From a virus (lineage: Duplodnaviria; Heunggongvirae; Uroviricota; Caudoviricetes): 31,781 bases of DNA. Both the position numbers and the translations under genes were made by a program. Location: IMG/VR virus record IMGVR_UViG_2579778929_000008. One strand, 5' to 3'. The notes under the pieces were generated by a model. That model searched no databases. It had not been told where the DNA came from and was given only the letters and a program-made list of their open reading frames with translations. Positions 22,321 to 25,719 of the stretch are shown here, in pieces (positions within the stretch are counted from its first letter, which is position 1; the number at the start of each line of letters is the position of its first letter).

Positions 22321-22761
22321 ATGGGTAAAGGCAGCAGTAAGGGGCATACCCCGCGCGAAGCGAAGGACAACCTGAAGTCCACGCAGCTGCTGAGTGTGAT
22401 CGATGCCATCAGCGAAGGGCCGGTTGAAGGTCCGGTGGATGGATTAAAAAGCGTGCTGCTGAACAGTACGCCGGTGCTGGACAGTGAGGGGAATACCAAT
22501 ATATCCGGCGTCACGGTGGTGTTCCGGGCCGGTGAGCAGGAGCAGACACCGCCGGAGGGATTTGAATCCTCCGGCTCCGAGACGGTGCTCGGTACAGAAG
22601 TGAAATATGACACGCCGATCACCCGGACCATCACGTCGGCAAACATTGACCGTCTGCGTTTTACTTTCGGCGTGCAGGCACTGGTGGAAACAACCTCAAA
22701 GGGGGACAGGAATCCATCGGAAGTCCGCCTGCTGGTTCAGATACAACGTAACGGTGGCTGA
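22321..22761 (+). CDS. J: Tail tip attachment/host specificity protein J, N-terminal 146 codons ending at an in-frame TGA
   Basis: MGKGSSKGHTPREAKDNLKSTQLLSVIDAISEGPVEGPVDGLKSVLLNSTPVLDSEGNTNISGVTVV...LVQIQRNGG then TGA at 22759-22761. As I recall lambda J, the next residue is Trp (TGG). Confidence 0.85.
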   Translation: MGKGSSKGHTPREAKDNLKSTQLLSVIDAISEGPVEGPVDGLKSVLLNSTPVLDSEGNTNISGVTVVFRAGEQEQTPPEGFESSGSETVLGTEVKYDTPITRTITSANIDRLRFTFGVQALVETTSKGDRNPSEVRLLVQIQRNGG

Positions 22762-25719
22762 GTGACGGAAAAGGACATCACCATTAAGGGTAAAACCACT
22801 TCACAGTATCTGGCCTCGGTGGTGGTGGATAACCTGCCGCCGCGCCCGTTCAATATACGGATGCGCAGGATGACGCCGGACAGCACCACAGACCAGCTGC
22901 AGAACAAAACGCTCTGGTCGTCATACACCGAAATCATCGATGTGAAACAGTGCTACCCGAACACGGCACTGGTCGGCGTGCAGGTGGATTCGGAGCAGTT
23001 CGGCAGCCAGCAGGTGAGCCGTAATTATCATCTGCGCGGGCGCATTCTGCAGGTGCCGTCGAACTATAACCCGCAGACGCGGCAATACAGCGGTATCTGG
23101 GACGGAACGTTTAAGCCAGCATACAGCAACAACATGGCCTGGTGTCTGTGGGATATGCTGACCCATCCGCGCTACGGCATGGGGAAACGTCTTGGTGCGG
23201 CGGATGTGGACAAATGGGCGCTGTATGTCATCGGCCAGCATTGCGATCAGTCGGTGCCGGACGGTTTTGGCGGCACGGAGCCGCGCATCACCTGTAATGC
23301 GTACCTGACCACACAGCGCAAGGCGTGGGATGTGCTCAGTGATTTCTGCTCTGCGATGCGCTGTATGCCGGTATGGAACGGGCAGACGCTGACGTTCGTG
23401 CAGGACCGACCGTCGGATAAGGTGTGGACCTATAACCGCAGTAATGTGGTGATGCCGGATGATGGTGCGCCGTTCCGCTACAGCTTCAGCGCCCTGAAGG
23501 ACCGCCATAATGCCGTTGAGGTGAACTGGATTGACCCGAATAACGGCTGGGAGACGGCGACAGAGCTTGTGGAGGACACGCAGGCCATTGCCCGTTACGG
23601 TCGTAACGTCACGAAGATGGATGCTTTTGGCTGTACCAGCCGGGGGCAGGCACACCGCGCCGGGCTGTGGCTGATTAAAACAGAACTGCTGGAAACGCAG
23701 ACCGTGGACTTCAGCGTGGGTGCCGAAGGGCTTCGCCATGTACCGGGCGATGTCATTGAAATCTGCGATGATGACTATGCCGGTATCAGCATCGGCGGGC
23801 GCGTGCTGGCTGTGAACAGCCAGACCCGGACGCTGACGCTCGACCGTGAAATCACGCTGCCATCCTCCGGTACCACGCTGATAAGCCTGGTTGACGGAAG
23901 TGGCAATCCGGTCAGCGTGGAGGTCCAGTCCGTCACCGACGGCGTGAAGGTAAAAGTGAGCCGTGTTCCTGACGGCGTTGCCGGATACAGCGTGTGGGGG
24001 CTGAAGCTGCCGACGCTGCGCCAGCGCCTGTTCCGCTGCGTGAGTATCCGTGAGAACGATGACGGCACGTATGCCATCACCGCCGTGCAGCATGTACCGG
24101 AAAAAGAGGCCATCGTGGATAACGGGGCGCACTTTGACGGCGACCAGAGCGGCACGGTGAATGGTGTCACGCCGCCAGCAGTGCAGCATCTGACCGCCGA
24201 AGTCACTGCAGACAGCGGGGAATATCAGGTGCTGGCGCGATGGGACACGCCGAAGGTGGTGAAGGGCGTGAGCTTCCTGCTTCGCCTGACCGTGGCAGCG
24301 GATGACGGCAGTGAGCGGCTGGTCAGCACGGCCCGGACGGCGGAAACCACATACCGCTTCACGCAACTGGCGCTGGGACGGTACACGCTGACAGTCCGGG
24401 CGGTAAATGCGTGGGGACAGCAGGGCGATCCGGCGTCGGTATCGTTCAGGATTGCCGCACCGGTAGCACCGTCGCGGATTGAGCTGACGCCGGGCTATTT
24501 TCAGATAACTGCCACGCCGCATCTTGCGGTTTATGATCCGACGGTACAGTTTGAGTTCTGGTTCTCGGAAACGCGGATTACCGATATCAGGCAGGTTGAA
24601 ACCACAGCCCGCTACCTTGGCGCGGGGCTGTACTGGATAGCCGCCAGTATCAATATCAAACCGGGCCATGATTATTACTTTTATATCCGCAGTGTGAACA
24701 CCGTTGGCAAATCGGCATTCGTGGAGGCCGTCGGTCGGGCGAGCGATGATGCGGAAGGTTACCTGGATTTTTTCAAAGGCAAGATAACCGAATCTCATCT
24801 CGGCAAGGAGCTGCTGGAAAAAGTTGATCTGACGGAGGATAACGCCAGCAGACTGGATGAGTTTTCGAAAGAGTGGAAGGACGCTAACGATAAATGGAAT
24901 GCGATGTGGGGCGTCAAAATTGAGCAGACCAAAGACGGCAAACATTATGTCGCGGGTATTGGCCTAAGCATGGAGGACACGGAGGAAGGCAAGCTGAGCC
25001 AGTTTCTGGTTGCCGCTAACCGTATCGCGTTTATTGACCCGGCAAACGGGAATGAAACGCCGATGTTTGTGGCGCAGGGCAACCAGATATTCATGAATGA
25101 CGTGTTCCTGAAACGCCTGACGGCCCCCACCATTACCAGCGGTGGAAATCCACCGGCATTTTCCCTGACACCGGACGGAAAGCTGACTGCTAAAAATGCG
25201 GATATCAGTGGTAGTGTGAATGCGAACTCCGGGACGCTCAACAACGTCACGATTAATGAGAACTGTCAGATTAAGGGGAAACTGTCAGCCAACCAGATTG
25301 AAGGCGATATTGTCAAAACGGTCAGCAAGTCTTTCCCCCGCACGAGCACTTATGCCAGCGGCACCATCACGGTAAGAATCAGTGATGATCAGAAGTTTGA
25401 CCGGCAGGTCATGATACCGCCAGTGTTATTCCGCGGTGGTAAGCATGAGAATTTCAACAGTAATAACCAACAGTCATACTGGTATTCAACCTGCCGGTTA
25501 AGAGTGACCCGCAATGGTCAGGAGATTTTTAATCAGTCCACGACGGATGCTCAGGGCGTATTTTCCTCAGTTATAGATATGCCTGCCGGACAGGGGACAC
25601 TGACACTGACATTCACCGTATCTTCATCAGGAGCGAATAACTGGACACCAACAACCAGTATCAGCGATCTGCTGGTTGTGGTGATGAAGAAATCCACAGC
25701 AGGTATCAGTATCAGCTGA
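22762..25719 (+). CDS. J: Tail tip attachment/host specificity protein J, remaining 985 codons in the same frame (track start is GTG)
   Basis: [67 protein letters not shown]... continues the lambda J alignment directly after the TGA. 146 + 1 + 985 = 1132 codons, the length of lambda J as recalled. Confidence 0.85.

Follow-up and report, generated by a model that had tools for sequence, protein, structure and literature searches.

An in-frame TGA codon in the tail tip gene J of a decayed Qin-locus prophage remnant of E. coli

The window analysed here (the whole stretch of DNA, 31,781 nucleotides) carries a lambda-type J gene that is divided into two open reading frames by an in-frame TGA. The features of the gene are:

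22321..25719, plus strand: pseudogene for gpJ (tail tip attachment / central tail fibre), 1132 codons long and interrupted by a stop at codon 147 (open reading frames, PDB match and Pfam; identical annotated copies)
22759..22761, plus strand: TGA in place of the Trp147 codon; the changed base is the A at 22761, where relatives have G (comparison with relatives)
22321..22758, plus strand: truncated 146-aa N-terminal product, which breaks off at position 63 of the 126-position Pfam FNIII-A_GpJ profile (Pfam; exact sequence recorded in public assemblies)
22762..25719, plus strand: downstream part of J, 985 open codons, with GTG the first after the stop (open reading frame list, Pfam)

In the reading of the window's open reading frames, the ATG-started frame 22321..22761 encodes 146 aa and ends with the TGA, in the context AAC GGT GGC TGA GTG ACG GAA; the same frame is then open from 22762 to a TAA ending at 25719. 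A preliminary description had reported this stop, flanked by 146 codons on one side and 985 on the other, and the open reading frames and their translation bear this out. The length it gave for lambda J is also correct (146+1+985 = 1132; J of NC_001416, 15505..18903, has 1132 aa), and at the site itself lambda reads as it stated, with Trp (TGG) and the residues quoted around it. By codon-by-codon comparison, codon 147 is TGA in the window and TGG in lambda and five relatives (phage 2H10, E. coli C2, Res13-Lact-EA06-22 and SE11 among them), as it is in all intact relatives examined. Chance is not an issue for the J stop: one base differs in a gene that is otherwise colinear and open.

Lambda gpJ (PDB 8IYK, 8K35 and 8XCG; PF24801, PF13550, PF24421, PF24489, PF09327 and PF12421) has the same 1132 codons, is colinear with the window gene over 1-1131 and has the same six Pfam domains. 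With codon 147 repaired to W, a phmmer search against the PDB returned 8iyk_J (E = 0, residues 1-1131 aligned to 1-1131). FNIII-A, Phage-tail_3, Ig_J, Ig_J_second, Phage_Tail_Tip and Ig_GpJ_C all score above the Pfam gathering score in an intact sister allele; in the window the six are divided between the two frames, the stop halving FNIII-A at position 63 of 126 of the PF24801 profile, and the 985-codon part holding the remainder of FNIII-A, Phage-tail_3, Ig_J, Ig_J_second, Phage_Tail_Tip and the C-terminal receptor-binding domain. The gene order (tape measure, M, L, K, I, J, lom, side tail fibre) includes the K-I-J-lom-stf order of lambda. The window gene therefore has the similarity, the six domains and the synteny of the lambda gpJ / TipJ family with an interrupted frame, and because of the TGA at codon 147 it is a pseudogene of that family, which differs from lambda J at this codon and by 150 nonsynonymous codon differences. 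In the classical amber mutants of lambda J, a premature stop kills tail-tip function and suppression restores the protein; those are laboratory ambers in a viable phage, whereas the window has a natural UGA fixed in a chromosomal remnant.

That remnant carries further lesions, which the preliminary description overlooked: an IS-truncated left arm, a terminase deletion and a frameshift in V. The features outside J are:

1..357, minus strand: partial transposase gene belonging to an ISKpn26 element (IS5-like), which cuts the prophage left arm just past hokD (same junction in 102651 and TUM14664)
9627..10000, plus strand: remnant of the large terminase gene, its last ~375 nt (comparison; in 102651 'terminase gpA endonuclease subunit, incomplete')
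15366..16108, plus strand: major tail protein V pseudogene, with a -1 frameshift (A6 to A5) at 15645-15649 ('frameshifted' label in both sister genomes)
16865..22260, plus strand: intact neighbouring tail genes, tape measure H and then M, L, K and I (coordinates transferred from L002, offset +2320)
25786..26385, plus strand: intact lom-like outer membrane protein gene, 3′ of J (open reading frame list and sister genomes)

Over 27 kb the window matches the annotated Qin-locus element of 102651 at 99.94% identity. The right end of the window has recombined, so that the ydfJ junction lies outside the window, and the ydfJ position and Qin marker genes are assigned through the sister genomes and the identity with 102651. 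With the Qin cryptic prophage (ydfJ) the sister genomes share hokD, rem, ydfU, ydfT, cspB, cspF, cspI, essD, ydfR, rrrQ, rzpQ, gnsB, pinQ, tfaQ and ydfK. The essential lytic genes lost comprise the early region, the terminase, V (by frameshift) and J (by nonsense). The IS5-family truncation is common to all three genomes whose left side was seen, and no integrase, repressor or replication genes were found left of hokD, where the IS5-like junction sits. The terminase deletion (junction at ~9630-9634) has removed ~2.6 kb, comprising the small terminase gene and most of the large one; it occurs in the window and in 102651, and TUM14664 has instead an IS1 in the tape measure, both being later, lineage-specific lesions. 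The A-run of V is 5 in all eight TGA-lineage copies (8/8) and 6 in an intact sister prophage (L008, 98.9% identity) whose terminase, V and J are all intact. To judge from its gene content, the Qin-locus remnant is predicted to be incapable of making virions and is crippled even when J is left out of account; with these other lesions, induction and a tail-assembly assay would be expected to yield no infectious particles, even if J were intact. The Qin of K-12 we take to be without almost all head and tail genes; the window element, with its nearly complete head and tail module, is at an earlier stage of decay than K-12 Qin.

The TGA allele is rare but real. J is 100% identical, TGA included, in the complete genomes of TUM14664 (Japan) and 102651 (Gambia), where it bears the RefSeq label 'gpJ, pseudo, internal stop' (the labelled records are NZ_CP135649.1 and NZ_CP189662.1); and the TGA form is also found in at least five draft contigs of other assemblies (L011-L013, L018 and L019). 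It thus occurs in eight or more assemblies that were produced independently, in different laboratories and countries. Public annotations already flag the pseudogene. A seed-forcing 39-mer found the TGA in 3 of 5,426 complete genomes, with the J region in about 4,064; an 81-mer with the TGA set in the usual AAA background had no exact match. The stop is missing from lambda and from >99.9% of J genes. A further form of the 146-aa J product, with I35, is also on record (P0004).

Lineage-specific base changes in J are synonymous in 18 of 22 cases, and the 985 downstream codons show no further decay. Compared codon by codon with C2, J has 43 synonymous against 11 nonsynonymous codon differences; the closest intact alleles are those of other E. 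coli prophages (98.4%) and of phage 2H10 (96.7%). As the differences from intact relatives are mostly synonymous, purifying selection acted on J until recently, and the stop is young. The undamaged 985 codons fit a recent mutation, but on their own would be compatible with some retained use as well.

We propose that J in this remnant is, very probably, a null allele that arose by a G-to-A change and was fixed neutrally in a decayed Qin-locus element: ordinary prophage decay. A spontaneous G:C-to-A:T transition has converted Trp147 (TGG) of a lambda-type J to TGA. There RF2 would terminate, presumably efficiently, and free a 146-residue fragment cut off midway through the first FNIII-like hub domain. 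As the remaining hub, the fibre and the receptor-binding domain would all be missing from it, such a fragment would probably be non-functional and J null. Fixation in one E. coli lineage may then have followed from the remnant being no longer selected for virion production, given its other losses: the early region by IS-mediated truncation, V by frameshift and, in this sub-lineage, the terminase. Genuine inactivation was among the explanations already offered, and it is the one that is supported, by an inherited G-to-A change in many independent assemblies that is annotated as an internal stop.

The competing suggestion of a sequencing or assembly error, with a true base of G and so TGG, could appeal to the single-base difference from all close relatives; we give it next to no credence, and the recurrence of the same base in the independent assemblies disposes of it. 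Moreover, the site lies outside homopolymers and outside Dam (GATC) and Dcm (CCWGG) motifs, the latter being the usual sources of systematic base-call error. Readthrough of the UGA with insertion of Trp, also raised earlier, fared differently. It is chemically plausible and would recreate wild-type gpJ, the original residue being Trp and the downstream frame being intact, and in K-12 reporters, where Trp-tRNA competes with RF2 at UGA, the measured readthrough runs from about 2% at 37 C to 4% at 25 C (PMC10570021). If the late operon is transcribed, trace full-length gpJ may thus be made, UGA being the leakiest stop in E. coli, and as a trace molecular event readthrough is likely. It is a different matter to say that the stop is leaky enough for J to stay partly functional, three copies per virion sufficing. 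No virion could use that gpJ, as the terminase, an intact V and the whole early region are missing, and the context is in no way specialised, the downstream sequence matching that of TGG alleles and showing no significant structure; in a prophage presumably dead from other lesions the event would be of no consequence. In natural E. coli isolates, furthermore, RF2 is the efficient Ala246 form, and stops leak less than in K-12. Readthrough as a function is very unlikely.

Programmed recoding of the UGA, as selenocysteine or by regulated readthrough, would also account for an in-frame UGA followed by so long an open frame, but its probability is close to nil: no SECIS or other Rfam family matched better than E = 5 within 300 nt of the stop (best E = 5.4), the 72 nt downstream of the stop fold no better than shuffled sequences (z = -0.64), and the UGA is unconserved, lambda and intact relatives having TGG. 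Reinitiation at the GTG directly after the stop could in principle give a 985-aa C-terminal gpJ with a use of its own, for example in receptor binding; the GTG abuts the TGA with GGTGG 4 nt upstream, gene callers give a 985-aa open reading frame from it, and the fragment retains all fibre and receptor-binding domains. However, GGTGG is a poor Shine-Dalgarno match at short spacing, the fragment would begin in the middle of the FNIII-A domain, and the confinement of the allele to one clone gives no sign of selection, which makes this reading highly improbable. Neutral fixation of a null allele thus accounts best for the TGA, and the 146-aa and 985-aa open reading frames are a reminder for annotation that two such frames can be a single pseudogene.

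Codon 147 has been hit more than once. TB06053 has TGA at codon 147 in a J fragment that is 95% identical and differs in its SNPs, at 12 and 36 nt from the stop, and the Rac-locus J pseudogene of E. coli LHM10-1 and CP52E has a stop at the same codon, with an identical 146-aa product annotated 'internal stop'. The latter differs from the window in having TAG not TGA, a P22-type capsid, another tube and tape measure, another locus and a different J 3′ end (1137 codons), and the other structural genes of LHM10-1 are all intact. There may therefore have been at least three independent stop conversions of W147, TGA in two Qin-locus J alleles and TAG at the Rac locus. Three apparently independent hits, set against stops in 0, 0, 1 and 0 genomes at four adjacent one-transition sites in a baseline search, might be taken to mark codon 147 as a mutational or selective hotspot for inactivation. 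We consider this very unlikely: with 4 events over 6 sites the probability of at least three at codon 147 is 0.11, or 0.26 without the index case, which is not significant; TGG alone among codons can become a stop by either of two single transitions, and J has 75 such codons; W199 to TGA exists too; and with ~15,900 J copies in complete genomes alone, repeat hits are expected. We put very little faith, likewise, in the idea that resident prophages are preferentially inactivated, or attenuated by leakiness, at W147, the first Trp codon of lambda-type J; were that reading true, near-cognate readthrough of UGA would return the exact wild-type residue. A second baseline, a look-up of hypothetical Gln-to-stop J products, found 10 of 10 prefixes on record, together with prefixes of arbitrary length ('partial'), and was dropped, J being a repeat that breaks draft assemblies, so that contig ends mimic nonsense alleles.

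Taken as ordinary decay, the window offers a clean, datable case of stepwise prophage loss, in which the shared, early steps are truncation by the IS, the frameshift in V and the nonsense codon in J, and the lineage-specific loss of the terminase or gain of IS1 came later.

Two further features of the J region were considered. A 674-aa antisense open reading frame inside J first looked non-random, as 0 of 2000 synonymous shuffles reach it; the mosaic 3′ end of J, richer in AT and home to 9 of the 13 TTA/CTA/TCA codons, biased this shuffle, and the frame was rejected as a gene, close relatives carrying antisense stops at sense codons 247, 311 and 365. Between I and J lies a hairpin that the terminator scan does not detect; it is conserved in lambda, and is hence unrelated to the J stop.

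The tail-tip gene J of the window, of the lambda gpJ type, is open on both sides of a single in-frame TGA:

22321 to the TGA at 22759-22761, plus strand: J N-terminal ORF, 146 codons from an ATG start (ORF reading)
22762 to a stop ending at 25719, plus strand: J downstream open frame, 985 codons in the same frame (ORF reading)

These coordinates and counts agree with the preliminary description, and the total of 1132 codons is the length of lambda J (NC_001416 15505..18903). With codon 147 repaired to Trp, the protein aligns to lambda gpJ chains of known structure (8iyk_J and others), with E = 0 across residues 1-1131. 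The stop lies in the context AAC GGT GGC TGA GTG ACG GAA; a site alignment gives TGG, and no termination, at this codon in lambda, phage 2H10, E. coli C2, Res13-Lact-EA06-22 and SE11, and the third base of codon 147 is the sole column to break an invariant alignment. The lambda peptide and Trp codon given in the preliminary description are thus correct. Sequence, domain set and synteny all place the gene in the lambda gpJ/TipJ family, and the broken frame makes it a pseudogene.

The suggestion that the TGA might be a sequencing or assembly error did not hold. Two complete RefSeq genomes of E. coli, TUM14664 (from Japan) and 102651 (from human stool, Gambia), are 100% identical to the window across the 3,399-nt J, TGA included, and of ten contigs listed among those that encode the 146-aa product, five (L011-L013, L018, L019) share the window's backbone and its TGA, with J at 100% identity; two of the five match the window at 100% identity across 19.5 kb. 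The site contains no homopolymer and lies outside GATC and CCWGG motifs. The TGA is therefore no error. It is real but ordinary, and PGAP already labels J in both complete genomes as gpJ, pseudo, with an internal stop.

We searched complete genomes with a 39-mer probe built so that each 28-base megablast seed has to contain the mutant A, and found the TGA allele in 3 of 5,426, the J region around codon 147 being present in 4,064; it is therefore a rare allele restricted to one lineage and not a trait of the J family. An exact match to the 146-aa product occurs on 44 contigs from NCBI, ENA and Logan assemblies. Exact-prefix look-ups of this kind reveal nonsense alleles only when the DNA is checked as well: draft assemblies break within the repeated J gene, so that the public protein collection contains 'partial' J N-terminal proteins by the thousand, at almost every length.

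Inactivation, one of the options put forward in the preliminary description, is supported both by inheritance of the TGA in identical J copies and by where the product is cut. Of the 126 positions of the Pfam profile FNIII-A_GpJ, which covers J residues 86-207, the 146-aa product reaches position 63 and the downstream ORF resumes at 68. In the published layout, gpJ consists of hub domains, two FNIII domains, an alpha-helical shaft, a central straight fibre and a C-terminal receptor-binding domain (PMC11101478). Judged from this layout, a product ending within FNIII-A_GpJ would retain hardly any of the hub and neither the fibre nor the receptor-binding domain, and we infer that the J TGA is a null allele.

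Recoding of the UGA as selenocysteine, or by programmed readthrough, can be excluded for practical purposes: an Rfam scan of 22500-23100 gave no recoding family, only chance matches (E = 5.4 and 6.4), folding of the 72 nt 3′ of the UGA does not surpass that of shuffled sequence (z = -0.64), and the sequence 3′ of the UGA is unchanged relative to TGG alleles. Unprogrammed leakage is another matter. In K-12 reporters, Trp-tRNA competes with RF2 for UGA and decodes it at about 2% (37 C) or 4% (25 C) (PMC10570021), and the J stop is probably read as Trp in trace amounts, provided that there is any transcription of the late operon. Such insertion would regenerate wild-type gpJ, so that the readthrough proposed in the preliminary description is plausible as a decoding event, but it would be of no consequence in a phage that has lost terminase, the major tail protein V and its early genes. 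Reinitiation at the GTG directly 3′ of the stop, with a weak GGTGG 4 nt upstream, might yield a C-terminal product, but this would begin within a domain.

A truncated J is only one of the defects of its carrier, a prophage remnant damaged independently at several points. Over 27 kb the window matches the Qin/ydfJ-locus element of 102651 at 99.94% identity; this element carries hokD, rem, ydfU, ydfT (Q antiterminator), cspB, cspI, essD, ydfR, rrrQ, rzpQ and gnsB, followed by a head/tail module with a ClpP-protease/capsid fusion and then by lambda-like Z, U, V, G, T, H, M, L, K, I, J, lom, stf and tfa. The other lesions in the window are:

1-357: part of the IS5-like ISKpn26 transposase gene, the window starting inside the IS (left-end comparison)
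about 9630-9634: junction of a terminase deletion of about 2.6 kb, removing the small and most of the large terminase
9632..10000: large terminase remnant, 122 codons
15366..16108: major tail gene V, with a -1 frameshift where an A6 run has become A5 (15645-15649)

The left arm stops just beyond hokD at ISKpn26, which abuts a truncated sulfatase gene, and integrase, repressor and replication genes are all absent from it; the same junction is found in 102651 and TUM14664. The frameshift divides V into ORFs of 123 aa and 111 aa and is present in 8/8 TGA-lineage copies examined, whereas the intact sister prophage (L008, in Res13-Lact-EA06-22) is without it; this sister is 98.9% identical over the structural genes, with terminase, V and J intact. 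The terminase deletion is common to the window and 102651 but not TUM14664, which instead has an IS1 within the tape measure gene. As the IS truncation, V frameshift and J stop are shared, these would be the older lesions, and the terminase deletion and IS1 insertion later, lineage-specific ones. Separately, 102651 has an extra A at window position 6738 in rzpQ (6466..6963), annotated there as frameshifted, while rzpQ is intact in the window and TUM14664; the window's strain is therefore a very close relative of 102651, not the same strain. Overall, this is a defective prophage of Qin type that has decayed less far than the Qin of K-12, which has kept hardly any head or tail genes.

The closest intact J alleles are 98.4% identical to the window's, differing mainly at synonymous positions (against C2, 43 codons differ synonymously and 11 nonsynonymously). 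Among base positions unique to the lineage 18/22 are synonymous, the others being W147*, Y307H (two bases) and S1010T, and J is identical among all TGA-lineage copies. This pattern indicates that J was under purifying selection until recently and that the stop is evolutionarily young, which explains why the 985 downstream codons are still open.

The same codon has been hit in other prophages. An identical 146-aa product is encoded in an unrelated Rac-locus backbone (trkG ... pinR/stfR/tfaR ... ompN; L014-L017, L020) with a P22-type capsid and other tube and tape measure genes; here codon 147 is TAG, in a different J allele whose 3′ end has diverged to 1137 codons. The Rac TAG copies are:

L014-L017, L020 (locus about 10439-10441) and L022; NZ_CP037903.1 and NZ_CP075731.1

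Two complete genomes, LHM10-1 and CP52E, carry this J, and in LHM10-1 it alone among the structural genes is flagged as a pseudogene. Strain TB06053 (Galapagos; L021 19750-21687, NZ_CM129847.1) has TGA at codon 147 of a J fragment, missing both ends, in a heavily eroded Qin-locus remnant. This fragment is 95.15% identical to the window's J, with SNPs 36 nt before and 12 nt after the stop; flanking differences so close point to what is probably a third independent hit, or else a very short conversion tract.

We make no claim of a hotspot. As a baseline, four nearby one-transition nonsense sites of equal conservation were searched in the same way (megablast, complete genomes) and gave 0 genomes for Gln140-to-TAG, 0 for Gln142-to-TAA, 1 for Trp199-to-TGA (LR-17-1) and 0 for Trp199-to-TAG, against which codon 147 shows no significant excess; by our own calculation the probability of at least 3 of 4 events at codon 147, over 6 sites, is 0.11, or 0.26 without the index case. 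In J, 75 codons lie a single transition away from a stop; 21 of these encode Trp (W147 being the first), and complete genomes alone contain about 15,900 copies of J, so repeated hits at one Trp codon are unsurprising.

Two further features near the stop were considered. An antisense ORF of 674 aa within J (22921..24945, minus strand, codon-aligned frame; 564 aa in lambda) exceeded all 2000 synonymous shuffles. We reject it as a gene: close relatives have antisense stops inside it, and what raises it above the shuffles is the AT-richer mosaic 3′ end of J, making the ORF a compositional by-product. Between the I stop and J start, at 22279-22299, lies a GC-rich hairpin with a short T-run (AAACCGCC-TGCG-GGCGGTTTT), kept in lambda, the Rac-type prophage and the sister prophage; the terminator scan did not call it, and it is unrelated to the J stop.

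From about 29480 the right end of the window departs from TUM14664 and 102651, which have the tfaQ-pinQ end of the Qin locus. The junction falls between 29479 and 29666. The stretch beyond (about 29480-31781) comprises the stf 3′ end, tfa, a gene for a SAM-methyltransferase (30502..31170, minus strand) and a fragment of a second tfa. Both genomes have an identical stretch as the distal tail-fibre module of a different prophage, some 300 kb away, which in 102651 lies in opposite orientation. The joined arrangement also occurs in three other assemblies (L011-L013), and is therefore a real recombination and not a chimera, most likely an inversion between the tail-fibre genes of two prophages.
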